A stretch of DNA of 64,000 nucleotides, from the sequence record NC_102531.1. One strand, 5' to 3'. The notes under the pieces are model-generated. The model worked only from the letters and a program-made list of their open reading frames with translations, made no database searches and was not told where the DNA came from. Shown piece by piece: positions 29,664-39,177 of this stretch. Position 1 is the first letter of the stretch. Every line of letters starts with the position of its first letter. The position numbers and the translations under genes were made by a program. The stretch comes from a phage.

Positions 29664-29740
29664 TGGTCTCCACGGAGTGATTCGAACACTCGACCTCCTG
29701 ATCCCAAATCAGGCGCTCTACCAAGCTGAGCTACGCGGAG
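29664..29740 (-). tRNA. tRNA-Pro (anticodon UGG)
   Basis: Manual fold: 7 bp acceptor, D arm, anticodon stem CCUGA/UCAGG with loop UUUGGGA, T loop GTTCGAATC, encoded CCA. Confidence 0.75.
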
Positions 29741-29751
29741 TATTTACTATT

Positions 29752-29826
29752 TGGTGGCCCTGGGTGGAATTGAACCACCGTCTGGCGATTATGAGTCGCT
29801 TGCTTGAACCTTCCAGCTACAGGGCC
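29752..29826 (-). tRNA. tRNA-Met (anticodon CAU; initiator/elongator/Ile2 not distinguished)
   Basis: Manual fold: acceptor GGCCCUG/CAGGGCC, anticodon loop CUCAUAA, T loop GGTTCAATTCC, encoded CCA. Confidence 0.7.
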
Positions 29827-29827
29827 T

Positions 29828-29903
29828 TGGTGCTGATGGCAGGACTTGAACCTACAACCTATTGATTACAAATCAATTGCACTACCGATTGTGCTACATC
29901 AGC
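29828..29903 (-). tRNA. tRNA-Thr (anticodon UGU)
   Basis: Manual fold: acceptor GCUGAUG/CAUCAGC, D arm GCAC/GUGC, anticodon stem AUUGA/UCAAU with loop UUUGUAA, encoded CCA. Confidence 0.75.
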
Positions 29904-29908
29904 AAAAA

Positions 29909-30007
29909 GGTGCTAGGTGATGGAATCGAACCACCTATGTATTCAACGACTACCTCGTCTATTTTCAGGATTAAAAATCCTCGCCCTTGCCAAAGGGCTT
30001 ACCTAGC
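29909..30007 (-). tRNA. aberrant tRNA-like element (anticodon unresolved; possible UUU loop)
   Basis: Perfect 7 bp acceptor (GCUAGGU/ACCUAGC), D arm GCCC/GGGC and T arm GGUGG-UUCGAUU-CCAUC, but ~99 nt long, anticodon region is a palindrome GGAUUUUUAAUCC, ~30 nt extra arm, 3' end ACCU rather than CCA. Confidence 0.35.
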
Positions 30008-30105
30008 TCAGTATGTTGACCATGTTGCTAGTCGGCGATGACGACTGTAACATTTGATAATCCGGTTCTGCTTCCGGCTTTCGCTTAATTACAAGGTCAA
30101 CAATG

Positions 30106-30196
30106 TGGCGGAGAGTAATGGAATCGAACCATCATCGAGTCATACCCAACGGGACGGTTTTCAAGACCGCTTGAGCACCATTGCTCCCTACCCTCC
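30106..30196 (-). tRNA. tRNA-Ser (anticodon UGA)
   Basis: Manual fold: type II tRNA, acceptor GGAGGGU/ACUCUCC, anticodon stem GCGGU/ACCGU with loop CUUGAAA, long variable arm, encoded GCCA. Confidence 0.75.
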
Positions 30197-30310
30197 TTTA
30201 TAAATTATACTGATAATGACACTGATTTTCGAGCAGTTAGTGACTAGTATAAACGACGATAAATATCAATGCCATTATCTGTATTATTTATGCATCTAAA
30301 AATATAAATT

Positions 30311-30397
30311 TGGTGGGGAGTGGTGGAGTCGAACCACCCGAGTCGCAATGACAATAGATTTACAGTCTACACCGCTACCTCTACGGGATAACTCCCC
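30311..30397 (-). tRNA. tRNA-Tyr (anticodon GUA)
   Basis: Manual fold: type II tRNA, acceptor GGGGAGU/ACUCCCC, anticodon stem GUAGA/UCUAU with loop CUGUAAA, T arm GGUGG-UUCGACU-CCACC, encoded CCA. Confidence 0.75.
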
Positions 30398-30401
30398 AAT
30401 T

Positions 30402-30476
30402 TGGCACCCCGTACTGGACTCGAACCAGTGTCAACGGCTTAGAAGGCCGCTGCTTTATCCACTAAGCTAACAGGGC
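30402..30476 (-). tRNA. tRNA-Arg (anticodon UCU)
   Basis: Manual fold: acceptor GCCCUGU/ACGGGGU (two G-U pairs), D arm GCUU/AAGC, anticodon stem GCGGC/GCCGU with loop CUUCUAA, encoded CCA. Confidence 0.7.
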
Positions 30477-32355: not shown

Positions 32356-32858
32356 AGCTGCCTCCTCTTCAAGTTATAGAAAAACTCACTGTATCGCTTT
32401 GTAACGAGCTTTTCTATCAAACTGGTGCGATTGCATTACCTGGTATAGTTTATATAGCTGTGGAGCGATTTAGGGGCCTTCTTGTCAGTTTCCACACATA
32501 AACTTCATCCAAGCTCGCGCGGGAGACTCTCAACCGACTCCTTACGGCGCTGGCAAGCTTTCGTCGGTGGTCCACATCAGTGCTAGGCCTTTGGCCTGCG
32601 CTATCGCTTCGCTCCCACACATGTTAACAGACCTGCATGTATGAACTTCTGTTATTGTGTGCACCAAGGAGGCCCGGCATCTCGCCCCTCGTAGGCGAGT
32701 GCCAATGAAGGGCCGACACTGCCCATAGTAAGTAATAAATTTAAAACATGGTACTTAGGATCTAGTATATTCTACATAAGTTAAGTATATGTACTTAGTA
32801 CCATAAGTACTAGATCTTTTATTTTTTATTATTTAGTTATTTTAGTTATATTCTTTAT

Positions 32859-32941
32859 GTGTCCGTATCACGGACAGTTAGTGTCCGTATTACGGGCAGA
32901 TGTGTCCGCGTGACGGACAGTAGTGTCCGTATCACGGACAG
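32859..32941. repeat. four tandem palindromic 19-mers (iteron/operator-like array)
   Basis: GTGTCCGTATCACGGACAG x4 (variants ...TATTACGGGCAG, ...GCGTGACGGACAG) at 21-22 bp spacing; each unit is an inverted repeat TGTCCGT-N3-ACGGACA; AT-rich tract immediately upstream. Confidence 0.7.
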
Positions 32942-33015
32942 TTAATAGTATCCGTTCCATGGCGAACATAAAACATACGAATCCTTATAGTACAGATATT
33001 TAAGTTTTTACTGGT

Positions 33016-33366
33016 CTAACCAGTTGTTGACATCCGAATAACTTCTTCTGGTGGCAAAACTTTGGAAAATGTGCATCTTTTACCTCTCCCTTGTGTGGAT
33101 GTTTCAACCACTCCTGCACATTCTAAAGTTTTAACGCACGCTGCTGCTTTTGTTTTCTTTATCCCAACATCTGCTGCAATTTTCCTTGTGCTTGGTGTGA
33201 AGCGTGAATTTCCTCCAAGCTTATACCAGTTGTGCAGGTAGCAGTATACGATCTTGTCATACAAGTCAAGAACAACAACCTCCCCAGTTGTGTCATTCAA
33301 AACTTTTGACATAGATAGTATTTCAAGGGGGACTTTAAGATATAGCAGCTTATCCCCATCTTTCAT
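33016..33366 (-). CDS. putative helix-turn-helix DNA-binding protein
   Basis: 116 aa; C-terminal segment STRKIAADVGIKKTKAAACVKTLECAGVV resembles an HTH; sits next to the iteron-like array. Confidence 0.35.
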   Translation of the reverse strand: MKDGDKLLYLKVPLEILSMSKVLNDTTGEVVVLDLYDKIVYCYLHNWYKLGGNSRFTPSTRKIAADVGIKKTKAAACVKTLECAGVVETSTQGRGKRCTFSKVLPPEEVIRMSTTG

Positions 33367-33413
33367 ATCTCCTGATTCTCCTTGTGTGGCAATTTTCTTT
33401 AAAATAGCAGGGA

Positions 33414-33968
33414 TTACTCCCTGCTGTCAATATCAAAACTCATTGCAATACGGTATGCCTCTTCTAATGGTAAGAGTCTCCCCCACACATCCCAACCGAC
33501 ATCAAGCTGCCTGCCAAACAACTGTTGTGTGGTTCCGTGAGCATGACCGAACAGTTGGACTGATCCGTGAGGCTTTCTGTTCCACTTTGCAAACTGGTAA
33601 TGGCTCATACAGATCAAATTCTTGTTGTGGCGAAGCTCGTAATAATCTACAACCTCATGACCGAACTCTTTCATAATTCTGACAGTCGTCCTTGTGTCAT
33701 GGTTGCCACGAACAAGAATAATATGTCCGTTCAACATATTTAGAATATCTGGAAGTAAGTTGTTGATATTCTTATCATTAGTGCACGCAATATCTCCCAA
33801 GTGGAACACAGTGTCTGCAGGTGACACAACAGAGTTCCACTCGGCGATGATTCCTGCATTCATACTGTCAAGATTACGATTATACTGAGATCTGTGTTTT
33901 TGACATGAATCAAACTCCATGACCCGCTGGTGGAGAAAGTGTGTGTCGCTTGTTACAAAGTATTTCAT
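33414..33968 (-). CDS. calcineurin-like metallophosphoesterase (candidate RNA 3'-phosphatase, Pnkp-like)
   Basis: Signature motifs SDTH, GDIA, GNHD, GHAH in order; likely start at MKYFVTSDTHF (ORF track 33414..34073 extends into the kinase gene). Confidence 0.6.
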   Translation of the reverse strand: MKYFVTSDTHFLHQRVMEFDSCQKHRSQYNRNLDSMNAGIIAEWNSVVSPADTVFHLGDIACTNDKNINNLLPDILNMLNGHIILVRGNHDTRTTVRIMKEFGHEVVDYYELRHNKNLICMSHYQFAKWNRKPHGSVQLFGHAHGTTQQLFGRQLDVGWDVWGRLLPLEEAYRIAMSFDIDSRE

Positions 33969-33975
33969 ACATTCC

Positions 33976-34386
33976 TCATTTAAGTTTAATGCAGTTTTTA
34001 AGCTGGCGTTCCATACGATCCACAACCCTGTCTGGAACATCATGAATGCTTTTATTACCGTGGCGGTTTTCAACCACGATCACGGTATAACTATACCCAT
34101 TACTGATTGCCATGTCAATATATTCTTGCACATGTTTTTCTTTTGTAAACGTATTACTTACCACGATACGGTCGTATCCCATACGCATCATATCTTCTAC
34201 GTTATCTTTGCACCATTTTGCTGCAAGTGTTACTTTACTTGCATCCCAGTTGTAATTTCCGTCATCGTCGTACCAGAACATGTCGTTCTCAAAATGTGGA
34301 TACAGACCTTCTAAAGATAGCGCATTTGCCAGTGTTGATTTGCCAGACCCTGGTAGACCACGCACGATATATAGCATTTTAGACAT
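33976..34386 (-). CDS. P-loop polynucleotide kinase-like protein (candidate 5'-OH kinase)
   Basis: Walker A GLPGSGKST close to N-terminus, T4 Pnk kinase-domain-like; likely start MSKMLYIV preceded by GGAGG. Confidence 0.5.
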   Translation of the reverse strand: MSKMLYIVRGLPGSGKSTLANALSLEGLYPHFENDMFWYDDDGNYNWDASKVTLAAKWCKDNVEDMMRMGYDRIVVSNTFTKEKHVQEYIDMAISNGYSYTVIVVENRHGNKSIHDVPDRVVDRMERQLKNCIKLK

Positions 34387-34486
34387 AGTAATCCTCCGTT
34401 TTAATTTTAATGATAGTATACCTAACTGTTTTGTTAATTTCAAGTGTTGACACTAGGTTATTTGTGTGGCAGGATAGACTGACAAA

Positions 34487-35422
34487 ATGACAAATGAGGA
34501 ACGTATGATGAAGTATTTTAATGCAGACGACTTGGTTGACAAAGGTCTTGTAACCAGTAGATATTACCCAGATCTTGGGTTAAAGATCTATAAATATGCC
34601 AGAAAAGTATTTTACAACAATTTATGGCATTTGTCCCCTCGTTTACTAGAGTGCCGAGGCATTGTTGTCGGTAATGAAGGAAATGTTGTGGCATGGCCCT
34701 TCACAAAAGTGTTTAACTTGGGAGAAAACTCCACCAACCTGCCTGACAATAAGCTTGTGACGGCGGTAGAGAAAAAGAACGGATTCCTTGGTGTGGTATC
34801 ATCTCATAAAGGTGAACTATTGTTCTCAACAACCGGATCTATTGATTCTCCATATTGTAACCTCGCAAAGGAAACCATCCAGGAGCAATGTGGTAATTTA
34901 GATCTTATCAAGAAGGTTATGGGTAATGAAAACATGACATTCATGTTTGAAATTTGTCACCCTTCAGATCCGCATATTGTTCAGGAAGATCATGGCGCAT
35001 ATTTGATAGGTTGCAGATATAATGATTCTGGAATAATGCTACCAGAGGCAGCTTTAGATGGGATTGCCAAATACCTTGGTGCAAAACGTCCTCACACTGT
35101 GCGTGAAATTCCGTTCAGCTATGCAAAAGAATTAGCTGCAGAAACAAGAGGCGAAGGGTATATGATCCGTAAGCCTTACTACCCTTATGACCTGCAGCTG
35201 AAGATCAAGTCTCCATACTATCTGGCACGGAAGGCCGTAATGAGGTGTAAAGCTTGGAAGATTTGGGATGATGATATCTTTAAACGTGTTGACGAAGAGT
35301 TTTACGGCATGGTAAACTTCATTCGTAGCAATTACACAGAAGATGTGTGGAACTGTCTCCTGGAGCAGGAACGCCGCGAGATACTTGACTGCTATTTCCA
35401 CAACGAGGACTATATGCAATGA
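34487..35422 (+). CDS. RNA ligase, T4 Rnl1 (RnlA)-like
   Basis: Recognisable similarity to T4 Rnl1 N-terminal region (LECRGIVV, KVFNLGEN, adenylation motif EKKNGFLG, STTGSIDS). Confidence 0.6.
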   Translation: MTNEERMMKYFNADDLVDKGLVTSRYYPDLGLKIYKYARKVFYNNLWHLSPRLLECRGIVVGNEGNVVAWPFTKVFNLGENSTNLPDNKLVTAVEKKNGFLGVVSSHKGELLFSTTGSIDSPYCNLAKETIQEQCGNLDLIKKVMGNENMTFMFEICHPSDPHIVQEDHGAYLIGCRYNDSGIMLPEAALDGIAKYLGAKRPHTVREIPFSYAKELAAETRGEGYMIRKPYYPYDLQLKIKSPYYLARKAVMRCKAWKIWDDDIFKRVDEEFYGMVNFIRSNYTEDVWNCLLEQERREILDCYFHNEDYMQ

Positions 35423-35769
35423 AGAAGTTGATTGTGTGGCTGGATGACTTGAGAGATCCGTCAAATTATGGGCTCCCAGACGCTATTTGGCTAAAGAATT
35501 CCTCCGAGTTTATGGATTTTATTGACGATAATAGAAAGCTCTACAGACGCGTTTCTGAGTGGCATATGGACAACGACCTTGGAGAGGTATTCGAAGGGTA
35601 CGATTGCCTATCTATGTTGGAGGAAAAATTTGTATTTGGTAAGCCTCCTGTAGTTGACAACGTGAAGATTTTCGTGCATACTTCTAACCCATCAGCTGCT
35701 CGTAAATTCATGCTTGCAGCTGACTCGTTTAAAAAGTTCGGAATAGAGATTAAACAAAACATCTACTGA
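35419..35769 (+). CDS. hypothetical protein (partner of Sir2 gene)
   Basis: 116 aa ORF overlapping the Rnl stop and ending 9 nt before the Sir2 start. Confidence 0.35.
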   Translation: MKKLIVWLDDLRDPSNYGLPDAIWLKNSSEFMDFIDDNRKLYRRVSEWHMDNDLGEVFEGYDCLSMLEEKFVFGKPPVVDNVKIFVHTSNPSAARKFMLAADSFKKFGIEIKQNIY

Positions 35770-35777
35770 GGACACTT

Positions 35778-36539
35778 ATGCGACGACTGATCATTATCTC
35801 CGGTGCTGGTTTGAGCGCTGAATCTGGTATCCCCACTTTCCGGTCTGGTGGCACTGCAATGTGGGAGAATTTCAGCATCAATGAGGTGTGTAACATCCAC
35901 ACCTTCGCCAAGAACTACTATAAGGTGCATGACTTTTACAATGCACGACGTGTAGCTCTGGGCAGTGTTGATCCTAACCTTGCACATCTCCGGATCGCTG
36001 AGTGGTATTCCCGCTGGTCTGGTCGTGTGATCAACATTACCACCAATGTGGATGATTTGCTGGAGCGTGCTGGTGTAAAACATGAAGATATTTTACATGT
36101 CCACGGGTATTTGCCAGAAATAGTCTATGAGGACGATGAAGGAAGTAACGTTATTAAGGACATTGGATACTCTGAGGTAGATGCAGGAAAGTATACCTGG
36201 GTTAAGCCTAATGTAGTGTTCTTCGGAGAAGTAGCTCCGAAGTATACAGACATGTACGACCTGTTGACTTCCCTTACGAGTAATGATATGGTTATCCTTG
36301 TAGGGTGTTCCAACACAGTTATCAATTTTAACTGGGAGCTATTCCCTGCCTGCAATAAGGGAACCAAACTACTGATCGTTAACAAATACGACTCACAGCA
36401 TCTAGAGGAGAATGGCATTTCACGTAGTGATATTTACCAATATGAGGATCGCGGCATCCCAGTTTGGTTTAACGGGGCGGTTGATGCTTTCTCTGATAAA
36501 ACATTCATTGAGATCGTAGAAAACTTTATGGAACTTTAA
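35778..36539 (+). CDS. Sir2 (sirtuin) family NAD-dependent deacylase/NADase-like protein
   Basis: N-terminal GAGLSAESGIPTFRS (NAD-binding), TNVDDLL and HVHG motifs; no CxxC zinc module seen. Confidence 0.65.
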   Translation: MRRLIIISGAGLSAESGIPTFRSGGTAMWENFSINEVCNIHTFAKNYYKVHDFYNARRVALGSVDPNLAHLRIAEWYSRWSGRVINITTNVDDLLERAGVKHEDILHVHGYLPEIVYEDDEGSNVIKDIGYSEVDAGKYTWVKPNVVFFGEVAPKYTDMYDLLTSLTSNDMVILVGCSNTVINFNWELFPACNKGTKLLIVNKYDSQHLEENGISRSDIYQYEDRGIPVWFNGAVDAFSDKTFIEIVENFMEL

Positions 36540-36552
36540 AAGGAGACCTTTA

Positions 36553-37266
36553 ATGCTGAATACCAAATTGATTGACAACCTGGAAAAACTGTCCCAACCT
36601 GAAAACTACCTTTGGTCTGCTAACTGGGTGGAAAACTGGAACCGTGTGGCAGCTAAAGTGAAAAAATCATACACACCGTTCGAATTACAGCTTAGCTTCA
36701 TTGAGGAAGAGTTCAATGAAGTTTTGGAAGAGCTGGAGAAAGGTGATGGTGGAGATCACCTGCTAAAAGAGGCCTGCGATCTTCACGTTGTCACAAGTTA
36801 TGCCGCTTATCTTGTTAATGACAATCACGAAAAGTGGTCAAGCCTGTTTGATAATCCACGAGGCCTTAAGTTCAAGATCGGTGAGTTCTATGATACCCTG
36901 ATCGCTGCGAAAAACACACCTAAGCAAAGAGCGTCAGCTTACCGCTTAGCGGAGTTGTCAACAGCTTTGCTGTTCCAGCTTCGCGGCGATGTGTGCGGGA
37001 TGATGCGTAAGGTTCTCAAATCGAATGACAGCAAGTTTGCAAAGATTAACCATCTACGGTATTCACACGGTGCCAGTGCAGATATGCCTGCTGAACAACT
37101 CGTAGAGTTGGAGATTAAAGATCTTGAGCGACGCTTTGATGGTCGATATGAAGGTTTTGTTGCTAAGGAAGAATTCTACAACGGTAATAAAGTTATCATA
37201 TTCCTTGACAGTAAAGGTAAGATCATGAAGCCTTCAAGCTTCAAGGATGTAACAGAGTATATTTAA
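36553..37266 (+). CDS. hypothetical protein, possible MazG-like nucleotide pyrophosphohydrolase
   Basis: EEEFNEVLEELEKGDGGDHLLKEACDL resembles the MazG EExxE...D helix pair; weak. Confidence 0.25.
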   Translation: MLNTKLIDNLEKLSQPENYLWSANWVENWNRVAAKVKKSYTPFELQLSFIEEEFNEVLEELEKGDGGDHLLKEACDLHVVTSYAAYLVNDNHEKWSSLFDNPRGLKFKIGEFYDTLIAAKNTPKQRASAYRLAELSTALLFQLRGDVCGMMRKVLKSNDSKFAKINHLRYSHGASADMPAEQLVELEIKDLERRFDGRYEGFVAKEEFYNGNKVIIFLDSKGKIMKPSSFKDVTEYI

Positions 37267-37299
37267 CAACATAGCCGGGATCACCCGGCTTTACTTGTT

Positions 37300-37638
37300 G
37301 TGGAAAGTATGCAAGTGAGGCAGATAGTTATGTACAAGCACTCCAGAGATCTTGAAAACGATGCTGTGTTTGGGGATCAGATGAAAGAGTTGGTTAAACT
37401 CATAGGCAGAATAGAGGATAAGTTTGACACTAAGATCTACATCGACAGCAAAGTATTCAACCACAAAATATGGACAAATCTGTGTGTTGGACTACATGGA
37501 GATAAAGATGTGGTAAATTTAGTTGTAATTAAGTTCATAGTGTGGCAGAATAAAACTATAAATTATTACGATCCACACCTGCTGGTTTACCCGATAAAAG
37601 ACCTATTAGATAAGGAGGACTGCAATGCCGTTATTTAA
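37300..37638 (+). CDS. hypothetical protein
   Basis: 112 aa ORF. Confidence 0.3.
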   Translation: MESMQVRQIVMYKHSRDLENDAVFGDQMKELVKLIGRIEDKFDTKIYIDSKVFNHKIWTNLCVGLHGDKDVVNLVVIKFIVWQNKTINYYDPHLLVYPIKDLLDKEDCNAVI

Positions 37639-37894
37639 TCTTGCTAAACCTGTAGAAGCACACCAGTTTGACGGAAGCTCTTCATCAGTATCTGATCTGC
37701 AACGGTGGATTGATACAGGTGTGTTTACATCGTCACCTGTTCGGACCAGAGATCTTCGTCGCATGTGTGAGCTTGTAGAGCCGTTTGGTAACCTAGTCTT
37801 GTACCATGGAGATTGGTTAGTTGACTTTATGGGAGACTGGTTGGTAATGAGTAAAGAAGAGATGTTTAAAATTTTTAAGGAAGAGGCCGAGTAA
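37625..37894 (+). CDS. hypothetical protein
   Basis: 89 aa ORF, overlapping neighbours. Confidence 0.3.
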   Translation: MPLFNLAKPVEAHQFDGSSSSVSDLQRWIDTGVFTSSPVRTRDLRRMCELVEPFGNLVLYHGDWLVDFMGDWLVMSKEEMFKIFKEEAE

Positions 37895-39177
37895 TGCATC
37901 AAATCAAAACAACACTGTACGCACTGAATAAAGATGGCAGCTACCAACAGTGGAAAGTATTCACGGATGGTGATAAGGTTATCGTAGAGTTTGGCAAGCT
38001 TGATGGTAAACTGCAATACAAAGAGACGATCTGCACACCTAAGAACGTGGGTCGCGCCAATGAAACTACAGCTGAGCAACAGGCCGAGCTGGAAGCGATC
38101 AGTAAGTGGGAAAAACAGGTCCGACTTGGGTACGTGGAGAGTATGGAAGATTGTGAGCAAGGTGTTGATCTTCTACCCATGTTGGTGCATGACTACCTGA
38201 AGCGTGGCAAGGCACTTAAATTACCTTGCTGGATCTTGCGTAAGTTAGATGGCCTTCGTCTACTTGTTGTTTTCCAGAATGGTGAGCCTAAATTTATTTC
38301 CCGTGGTAATAAGTCCTACCCTATTCAAGGGAAGCTTCTGGAGCAACTTCGCTCTTTCCACCTAACCACCGGGATTAAACAGCTCGACGGAGAGCTCTAT
38401 ATTCATGGTCTGCCTCTGCAGAAAATAGTATCTCTTGCTAAACGGTGGCGCACACAGGAAGAAATTCAGGCCGAGATCGATAAAGACTACGAGGCAGATA
38501 AAAAACGCCGTCAGGCTGCGATTAAAGCAGGTTTAGCAACATACAAAAACTTCAACAAGATGGACATTCCTGTTGATGTTGAGCCTGTTCGTGATGATTT
38601 GCGTTACGGAGGGTACTGCAGCTACGACTTAGAGTATCATATTTTCGATATTCCTAGCGATAAGGTGTGGTGGGATCCTGAAACAGAGTCTGGACGCTGT
38701 AAGGATCTTATGGAGGCAAATGGTGCTATTGCTTCTTTGATGCTTGATCATATTAAGGTTGTTGATGCAGAGCTTGCATACACAGTTGATCGGTGCGAAG
38801 AGTCTGTTGGTATATTTATGTCTGAGGGATATGAAGGTACCATTATGCGTAACTTCTGTGGTAAATATGAGTATGGTCAGCGAACATCTGAAGCATTGAA
38901 ATGGAAAAAGTTCAACGACGCAGAGGTGAAAGTTATTGACGTTGAGAAAGATAAGAATGATGAAGGTGTTCTTATCTGTGTTGACAAGGAAGGTGTTGTT
39001 GTTAAAATGAAGATGAAAGGCACGCACGAGGAGCGTAGCTATGACAGGATGCAGGAAATGATCGGCAAGTTTATCACCTTCAAATACCAAGCAAGGACAG
39101 AAGACAACAACTACCAATTCCCTGTCGGTATCTGCGTTCGAAATGTTAACCCAGACACTTGGGAGGTGCTGGAATGA
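37894..39177 (+). CDS. DNA ligase (KxDG nucleotidyltransferase; cofactor class unresolved)
   Basis: 427 aa; motif I LRKLDGLRLLVVF (KxDGxR) and downstream nucleotidyltransferase-like organisation. Confidence 0.55.
   Translation: MHQIKTTLYALNKDGSYQQWKVFTDGDKVIVEFGKLDGKLQYKETICTPKNVGRANETTAEQQAELEAISKWEKQVRLGYVESMEDCEQGVDLLPMLVHDYLKRGKALKLPCWILRKLDGLRLLVVFQNGEPKFISRGNKSYPIQGKLLEQLRSFHLTTGIKQLDGELYIHGLPLQKIVSLAKRWRTQEEIQAEIDKDYEADKKRRQAAIKAGLATYKNFNKMDIPVDVEPVRDDLRYGGYCSYDLEYHIFDIPSDKVWWDPETESGRCKDLMEANGAIASLMLDHIKVVDAELAYTVDRCEESVGIFMSEGYEGTIMRNFCGKYEYGQRTSEALKWKKFNDAEVKVIDVEKDKNDEGVLICVDKEGVVVKMKMKGTHEERSYDRMQEMIGKFITFKYQARTEDNNYQFPVGICVRNVNPDTWEVLE

Follow-up and report, generated by a model that had tools for sequence, protein, structure and literature searches.

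A stretch of phage DNA 64,000 nucleotides long (sequence record NC_102531.1; hereafter, the window) contains, at 33414-35422, three neighboring genes encoding a calcineurin-type metallophosphoesterase (MPE), a minimal polynucleotide-kinase-like P-loop kinase, and an ATP-dependent RNA ligase of the Rnl1 family, which together probably form a "heal-and-seal" module for RNA repair; its most plausible targets are tRNAs whose anticodon loops have been cleaved by defense ribonucleases of the host. An earlier note on this DNA had proposed a module made up of these three genes. The feature is real and was correctly interpreted, but it was incompletely delimited, in that genes for a cREC (cyclic-phosphate-processing receiver-like domain) protein, a Sir2-family protein, and a MazG-like pyrophosphohydrolase follow the ligase gene in the same transcription unit; nor is the module new, having already been described as a prediction.

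The window belongs to a Vequintavirus (rV5-like phage), with positions 33000-37300 being 97-98% identical, over their full length, to those of more than 100 Vequintavirus genomes, such as those of phage nom and the BASEL phages Bas51 and Bas54. All three open reading frames are present on the strands claimed for them. The MPE gene (33414-33968, minus strand; 184 amino acids), predicted to encode a 2',3'-cyclic-phosphate/3'-phosphate healing enzyme, starts at ATG 33968, 7 nt past the stop codon of the gene for the predicted 5'-OH polynucleotide (RNA) kinase (33976-34386, minus strand; 136 amino acids), which in turn starts at ATG 34386 behind a Shine-Dalgarno-like GGAGGA. The predicted ligase gene (34505-35422, plus strand; 305 amino acids) starts at ATG 34505 or 34508, behind a similar GAGGA at 34496-34500, with homologues beginning MKFN, and its longest open reading frame runs from 34487. 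These start codons are almost certainly the ones used, because start-codon context, the N-termini of homologues, and public annotation agree. The strand switch that had been placed at 34444-34486, from the longest open reading frames, is therefore not borne out, and the divergent region that separates the two operons, kinase-MPE on one side and ligase on the other, is instead the 118 bp at 34387-34504.

More detailed analysis of the kinase located the expected P-loop, GLPGSGKST, at residues 10-18, and matched the protein to the AAA_33 profile at 1.6e-9, above the curated cut-off, and to phrog_2071 at 2e-58. Its family comprises at least 7988 matches, with members of about 130 amino acids, in which R-G-x-P-G-S-G-K-S-T, D35, W58-C59, N78-T79, E106-N-R-H109, and H115 are invariant. 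A single-sequence search of the PDB returned nothing useful, the P-loop alone being matched (E 0.087), and a family profile was needed to retrieve Pnkp1, PSTK, T4 Pnk, and the CthPnkp kinase domain at 1e-4 to 1e-3. In an hhalign comparison with T4 PseT, a probability of 95.5% was obtained across the T4 kinase domain, with D35 falling on the catalytic D35 of T4; the invariant R108 aligns with T4 R122 in a lid region (the lid Arg of T4 being R126) where the alignment is poor. Three features of a T4-type polynucleotide 5'-kinase domain—a fold nearest to that of Pnk, a GxxGxGK[ST] P-loop, and a catalytic Asp after strand 2—were found, and the profile comparisons support assignment of the protein as a minimal Pnk-like kinase, structurally nearest to polynucleotide/tRNA kinases. 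The protein is not a dNMP kinase, the example given of an unrelated family that would have counted against the proposal. The 136-residue protein consists of the kinase domain alone, the HAD (DxDxT) 3'-phosphatase domain of T4 Pnkp being absent from it. GenBank labels for this gene are inconsistent, including "putative phosphoesterase", "AAA family ATPase", and "3'-phosphatase, 5'-polynucleotide kinase"; the last of these is half wrong, because the kinase lacks a phosphatase domain.

The four motifs reported for the MPE were all found, namely SDTH (residues 7-10), GDIA (58-61), GNHD (88-91), and GHAH (141-144), and the protein scored above the curated cut-offs of Metallophos_2 (4.1e-7) and Metallophos (7e-7), as well as matching phrog_547 at 1e-52. 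It has the DxH, GD, GNH[DE], H, and GHxH metal-binding motifs of the calcineurin-like superfamily. Among 30 orthologues (27-51% identity), the binuclear-metal ligands H10, D59, N89, H90, H123, H142, and H144 are invariant, as are the family-specific residues H13, R26, W129, and D160, and D8 is kept in at least 90%. Judged by these conserved residues, the MPE is a catalytically intact enzyme of the calcineurin type. Its substrate, by contrast, cannot be read from homology. The family profile retrieved Aquifex aq_1665 (1xm7; 6.6e-24) as the sole strong solved relative, with GpdQ next at 5e-4, and the GD motif is not continued by the DR of the lambda-phosphatase/CthPnkp type.

With regard to the ligase, RNA_lig_T4_1 (PF09511) was matched at 4.9e-15 (56.4 bits vs a Pfam gathering threshold of 28.3) over positions 1-227 of the 227 in the model, and phrog_562 at 1e-65; the family comprises 1295 matches. 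Motifs I (K96-K-N-G), III (F154-E155), IV (E223-G224), and V (K239-I-K241) are invariant in 34 homologues and line up with those of T4 Rnl1 in a profile alignment, the catalytic residues being likewise invariant in the 36 kinase and 30 MPE homologues compared, although identity within these sets is no more than 30-50%. While a single-sequence PDB search gave nothing but a spurious match (E 0.75), the family profile retrieved T4 Rnl1 alone, at 9e-13, over the nucleotidyltransferase domain only, with the alignment stopping at T4 residue 250. The "clear similarity to T4 Rnl1" that had been claimed thus holds at the profile and structure levels but not at the sequence level, where identity is about 20%. 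The fold is nearest to that of Rnl1, rather than those of DNA ligases or Rnl2, supporting placement of the protein in the Rnl1/Trl1 RNA-ligase clade and not among DNA ligases, the placement that would have undone the proposal. Within this clade, T4 Rnl1 and fungal Trl1 are equally distant from the ligase, which also missed the cut-off of the T4 RnlA equivalog TIGR02308 (40.8 bits vs 242.25). T4 Rnl1 has 374 residues, whereas the ligase here has about 305 and, in place of most of the T4 C-terminal domain (tRNA-specificity, residues ~255-374), a short, different, and conserved helical module of about 60 amino acids after motif V (E270, E271, W288, R296).

The three families were found to be linked across distantly related phages. 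Ligase homologues at 35-48% identity were collected from Logan contigs and IMG/VR, and their surroundings were searched with custom HMMs for the MPE, kinase, ligase, cREC, Sir2, and MazG-like proteins; 58 ligase clusters resulted at 80% identity, and the counts are taken from the 47 that are flanked on either side by 2.5 kb or more of sequence. An MPE gene lies within 6 kb of the ligase gene in 41 of the 47 clusters, a kinase gene is present in 39 (35 of them with the kinase no more than 600 bp away), and both are present in 35. This co-location is far above the ~11-13% expected at a random position; a rough binomial calculation against a ~13% chance gave 6e-30 for the MPE and 8e-27 for the kinase, the clusters not being phylogenetically independent. 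At least four gene orders were observed—MPE-ligase-kinase, kinase-ligase-MPE, MPE-x-ligase-cREC-kinase-Sir2 (where x is one intervening gene), and the divergent form, which is confined to the rV5 type. In five Logan contigs encoding ligases at about 45% identity, the order is MPE-ligase-kinase with genes overlapping or abutting, the start codon of the kinase gene overlapping the stop codon of the ligase gene before it. The gene immediately upstream of the ligase in these five contigs that had appeared unlabelled, owing to the lack of a precomputed Pfam label, proved to be an MPE orthologue by BLAST and custom HMM (E 1e-17 to 1e-48).

Furthermore, the kinase and ligase are fused in two clusters (13 loci) into a single protein of 421-432 amino acids, with the kinase N-terminal and the ligase C-terminal; examples from IMG/VR are the open reading frames at 5560-6825 of L037, 5527-6825 of L044, and 1338-2618 of L045, matched at ~1e-50 by the kinase and ~1e-94 by the ligase HMM. 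Among the neighbors of the fusion loci are genes for a DNA ligase and a pyrimidine-dimer glycosylase-like protein. Conserved synteny and this fusion together support a linkage of the three families. In a reverse survey starting from 36 kinase clusters, an MPE was found nearby in 25 and a ligase in 15, with 14 having an MPE but no ligase within 5 kb and seven having neither; kinase-MPE spacing is often 30-50 bp. Large unlabelled open reading frames beside stand-alone kinases (contigs L088-L090) gave no ligase match in Pfam or with the custom HMM. Seen from the kinase side, therefore, conservation is strongest for the pairing of kinase and MPE, two genes that make up a conserved, putative end-healing unit, and the Rnl1-type ligase is the partner most often found with them.

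In the pathway proposed for these proteins, cuts by a host nuclease would leave 2',3'-cyclic-phosphate and 5'-OH ends. The 184-residue binuclear MPE would open and strip the cyclic phosphate or 3'-phosphate to give a 3'-OH; the 136-residue kinase would then move a phosphate from an NTP onto the 5'-OH, with D35 acting as the general base; and the ligase, adenylylated on K96, would activate the 5'-phosphate and seal the break. CthPnkp and lambda phosphatase are likewise calcineurin-type enzymes, with both 2',3'-cyclic phosphodiesterase and phosphomonoesterase activity. In T4, Pnkp and Rnl1 repair tRNA-Lys cleaved by PrrC, and under the heal-and-seal interpretation T4 Pnkp (PseT) and Rnl1 (RnlA, gp63) would represent functionally the same pathway. 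The proteins differ in architecture, however. As had been proposed, the predicted healing enzyme is split in the window, the kinase and MPE residing on two small polypeptides without any HAD domain: T4 Pnkp has a HAD phosphatase fused to its kinase, whereas here a stand-alone 136-residue kinase, in which T4 R38 is not conserved, is accompanied by a separate calcineurin-type phosphatase, the type also found in bacterial CthPnkp (Clostridium thermocellum).

The plus-strand genes that follow the ligase extend this core in rV5-like phages. The cREC gene (35419-35769, plus strand; 116 amino acids), whose start overlaps the ligase stop (ATGA), matches PF20274 (1.9e-14) and phrog_1479 (6e-35) and encodes the Rec-type acidic residues DD9-10 and D51/D53, together with T88/S89; in Vequintavirinae-related contigs it lies between or beside the ligase and kinase genes. 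The Sir2-family protein (35778-36539, plus strand; 253 amino acids; PF02146, 5.9e-27), predicted either to remove 2'-phosphates with NAD+ or to act as an ADP-ribosyltransferase, retains the motifs for NAD binding and the catalytic His (GAG at residue 9, TNVD at 89, HG at 109), but with three Cys in total and no CxxC pair it is without the zinc-ribbon module of classical sirtuin deacylases. The final gene of the unit encodes the MazG-like pyrophosphohydrolase (36553-37266, plus strand; 237 amino acids; phrog_671, 4.3e-22, without a Pfam match), and is labelled "putative Sir2-like protein" in several GenBank records. These three genes are a lineage-specific extension of the core, with cREC present in 7, Sir2 in 8, and MazG in 8 of the 47 ligase clusters, all on Vequintavirinae-like contigs of 93-150 kb; in each of those 8, the MazG-like gene co-occurs with Sir2 and/or cREC. 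As an addition to the pathway above, cREC would open the cyclic phosphate to a 2'-phosphate, which Sir2 would remove in the manner of Tpt1, probably providing a second, NAD+-linked route for 3'-end chemistry. That two parallel 3'-end-healing routes feed one Rnl1/Trl1-like ligase in rV5-like phages is a tentative and rather doubtful proposal; in it, the MPE would strip the phosphate as T4 does, whereas cREC and Sir2 would imitate eukaryotic tRNA splicing, the 2'-phosphate being passed to NAD+ once the ends are ligated. The present data are neutral as to the cREC-Sir2 route, which may operate as predicted by Iyer et al. (2022). If so, the zinc-less Sir2 would be the first sirtuin with RNA 2'-phosphotransferase activity, and cREC would represent a new class of cyclic phosphodiesterase.

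The same gene set—T4-like tRNA ligase, cREC, nucleotide kinase, sirtuin, MazG-superfamily pyrophosphatase, and calcineurin-like phosphoesterase—was described as type 2 of a sirtuin-centered RNA-repair neighborhood, with Escherichia phage V5 and Proteus phage Mydo as prototypes and with RNA-end clean-up and ligation as the predicted function (Iyer, Burroughs, Anantharaman, and Aravind, 2022, Viruses 14:1977, PMC9503650, section 3.7.3). The phage of the window is closely related to V5, and all six genes were found within 33414-37266. A KptA/Tpt1-like role was predicted for Sir2 in the same paper (PMC9503650), while the cREC prediction had appeared in a 2021 jumbo-phage paper by the same authors. 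GenBank records, too, already name a polynucleotide kinase, a phosphoesterase, and an RNA ligase; no paper dealing with rV5 in combination with an RNA ligase and a polynucleotide kinase emerged when the literature was searched. Burroughs and Aravind are said to have given, in 2016, what is likely the first description of such systems. The addition made here is modest. The published description centers on the sirtuin and treats the phosphoesterase as "occasional", whereas in the present survey the MPE and kinase form the core and cREC, Sir2, and MazG are restricted to one lineage; to this can be added the kinase-MPE pair as the most conserved unit, the kinase-ligase fusions, and the equidistance of the ligase from T4 Rnl1 and Trl1.

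Other repair systems show partial resemblances. In the bacterial Pnkp/Hen1 and Pnkp1-Rnl-Hen1 systems, the kinase, metallophosphoesterase, and ligase of CthPnkp form one polypeptide, whereas three separate genes are present here, and no Hen1 methyltransferase gene adjoins the module according to Pfam and PHROG searches and public annotation; the module thus does not belong to these systems. Likewise, the MPE profile matches aq_1665 rather than a Pnkp entry, and no NCBIfam Pnkp model is matched. In the fungal/plant Trl1/AtRNL enzymes, the domains are arranged in the order ligase-kinase-CPD, whereas the phage fusions have the order kinase-ligase, and, compared with Trl1/AtRNL plus Tpt1, the module lacks both a 2H CPD domain and Tpt1/KptA.

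Transposon data are available for orthologues. All six Bas54 orthologues (bas54_0206 to 0211) carry dense insertions on E. coli K-12, with means of 88-406 reads per TA site (HIDEN-SEQ preprint, 10.1101/2025.11.20.689424), and are hence dispensable on that host. Transposon insertions in the T4 rnlA N-terminal domain, by contrast, are not tolerated. The dispensability fits an accessory, condition-dependent role and argues against the label "tail fibre attachment". In the T4-like phage Bas37, one of the host comparisons showed significant depletion of the T4-type polynucleotide kinase bas37_0055 (log2FC -1.90, adjusted p 0.00000; HIDEN-SEQ Extended Data Table 7), suggesting that end-healing is needed for growth on a natural E. 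coli isolate.

Several observations weigh against assigning the core to RNA repair. In one clinical-isolate comparison, bas54_0206 to 0211 showed no depletion and no effect on fitness (log2FC +0.13 to +0.43; 10.1101/2025.11.20.689424). The kinase is unusually small, has W38 (family consensus F) at the position of T4 R38, and carries invariant or near-invariant residues without a T4 Pnk counterpart (H56, W58, C59, E106-N-R-H109, and H115), of which H56, W58, C59, H109, and H115 count here and which may serve substrate binding or a second activity; it was termed merely a "nucleotide kinase" by Iyer et al. (2022; PMC9503650). For the MPE, the comparisons brought out no particular kinship with the Pnkp phosphatase, and its nearest solved relative, aq_1665, is without known function, while an NCBIfam scan gave no model placing the kinase, MPE, or ligase, all scores being far under the cut-offs. 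No MPE was found within 5.5 kb of the 13 fusion loci, nor was another phosphoesterase found among their neighbors. Finally, the kinase family is far commoner than the ligase family (at least 7988 vs 1295 matches), and the kinase-MPE pair must therefore often serve another ligase or substrate.

Among the alternatives to the heal-and-seal interpretation, the NAD+-centered repair scheme of Iyer et al. (2022), resembling fungal/plant tRNA splicing and partly overlapping that interpretation, is rather unlikely as an account of the module. In this scheme, cREC would generate a 2'-phosphate, the kinase would act on the 5' end, the Rnl1/Trl1-like ligase would seal a 3'-OH,2'-PO4 end to a 5'-PO4 end, and Sir2, like Tpt1/KptA, would use NAD+ to strip the 2'-phosphate; MPE and MazG would have a secondary part, in which they would act not on RNA ends but on by-products, either ADP-ribose cyclic phosphate or nucleotides. 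Besides being a published prediction (PMC9503650), it accounts for the cREC, Sir2, and MazG-like genes lying directly after the ligase gene, overlapping or closely spaced, for the single co-directional block of ligase, cREC, kinase, and Sir2 in relatives, and for the NadV, Prs, Macro, and NADAR genes near the module in several of them. However, with cREC, Sir2, and MazG found near just 7, 8, and 8 of the 47 ligase clusters, compared with 41 for the MPE and 39 for the kinase, members of the ligase family must in most cases do without an enzyme that removes 2'-phosphates, and the scheme would thus be at most an add-on. The lack of the zinc module in Sir2 also counts against it, and we know of no sirtuin with phosphotransferase activity. 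An improbable alternative is that the kinase and MPE heal DNA, cleaning the 5'-OH/3'-phosphate ends of nicks or breaks so that the ATP-dependent DNA ligase of the phage can seal them, whether in replication, in recombination, or after attack by a host nuclease. T4 Pnkp acts on DNA too, the right arm of the genome holds DNA-metabolism genes, and an ATP-dependent DNA ligase gene is present at 37894-39177, such a gene lying 0.6-3 kb from the module here and in several relatives; yet its position varies, whereas the recurrent tight partner, including by fusion, is the Rnl1-type RNA ligase. The best NCBIfam match of the MPE, ligase-associated PdeM, points in the direction of DNA as well, but at 21.8 bits against a cut-off of 150 it is far below threshold.

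Still less probable is the view that these are unrelated small-molecule enzymes brought together by chance in an early gene cluster, with the kinase acting on nucleosides or nucleotides (for example, in NAD salvage) and the MPE degrading signaling nucleotides of host immunity. Near-universal synteny of the triad in several orders and the kinase-ligase fusion argue instead for a shared pathway, although the "nucleotide kinase" label of Iyer et al. (2022), the frequent occurrence of the kinase family without a nearby ligase, the kinase gene being followed by Prs and NadV genes in FelixO1-like contigs, and the proposal that calcineurin-type phosphodiesterases serve as counter-nucleotide enzymes (PMC7824862) would all suit it. 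Hardly credible, lastly, is a ligase whose main task is to attach tail fibers (the other function of T4 gp63), as implied by the annotation "RNA ligase and tail fiber protein attachment catalyst" in phrog_562 and many GenBank records. This label has been inherited transitively from T4; most of the T4 C-terminal domain is missing from the ligase, its conserved partners are RNA-end enzymes, and the Bas54 ligase orthologue takes dense insertions (mean 192 reads per TA site, 60 sites), unlike the intolerant N-terminal domain of T4 rnlA.

Taking the heal-and-seal interpretation as the probable one, the module bears on phage counter-defense. Defenses that cleave tRNA, including PrrC, RloC, PARIS, and Retron-Eco7/PtuAB, are now seen as common, while to our knowledge T4 Pnkp/Rnl1 is still the sole phage repair pathway shown experimentally. 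Because the kinase-MPE-ligase triad is widespread in the survey, occurring in FelixO1-like, Vequintavirinae-like, and many uncultured phages, tRNA repair is suggested to be a common counter-defense. The proteins, being small and separable, are convenient for biochemistry and possibly for use as RNA-end-modifying reagents, and the chemistry of Sir2 and cREC is the part of the module that could surprise. In FelixO1-like and related contigs (L002, L003, L005, and L006), NAD-salvage genes (NadV/NAPRTase, Prs) flank the MPE-ligase-kinase triad, accompanied in some by Macro, NADAR, and a second Metallophos gene, a hint that RNA repair and NAD+ metabolism are connected even where Sir2 and cREC are missing.

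A seven-gene tRNA array is located at 29664-30476 on the minus strand, with genes for Pro, Met/Ile-CAU, Thr, an atypical Lys-UUU-like tRNA, Ser, Tyr, and Arg-UCU identified by ARAGORN, Rfam, and public annotation. The distance of about 4 kb between the module and this array given by the earlier note holds for the ligase gene (4.0 kb) but not for the MPE gene, which is 2.9 kb away. It is possible that the tRNAs of the array are repair substrates or substitutes for cleaved host tRNAs. The atypical tRNA (29909-30007, minus strand; 97-99 nt) has the anticodon loop TTTTTAA, consistent with Lys-UUU, and, past the anticodon stem, an extra arm about 25-30 nt long; it was called "???" or an intron-containing Gln tRNA by ARAGORN, scored 35.5 bits with the Rfam tRNA model, and is annotated as tRNA-Lys in BASEL and as "tRNA-OTHER" in other records. 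PrrC and PARIS classically target tRNA-Lys(UUU), and this odd tRNA near the repair module could therefore be a substitute that resists the nucleases.

Up to about 34.4 kb, the minus-strand genes encode tail fibers, capsid, terminase, the tRNA array, and small open reading frames, and beyond this point plus-strand DNA-metabolism genes follow; the sign of the GC skew flips at the divergent region, at about 34 kb. A consensus scan of the divergent region revealed a sigma70-like match (10/12) directed toward the kinase gene, from 34443 to 34415, and no convincing promoter on the plus strand, with 19 sites in the region overall compared with 10.4 expected; the result is equivocal, and no promoter is claimed. 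At the other end of the unit, a GC-rich hairpin (AGCCGGG-ATCA-CCCGGCT, 37273-37290), terminator-like on both strands, lies 7 nt past the MazG-like stop codon; a hairpin scan by consensus only gave 3 sites compared with 2.8 expected, weak evidence by itself. Four tandem units of 21-22 bp, each with the palindrome TGTCCGT-ATC-ACGGACA, were also observed at 32859-32944, preceded by an AT-rich repeat tract at 32817-32849. They occupy a 660-bp gap just downstream of an HTH/"replication initiation" gene (33016-33366; phrog_12838), near the GC-skew flip, and are annotated in phage nom merely as "repeat_region". The array looks like a set of iterons or operators, possibly marking a replication origin.

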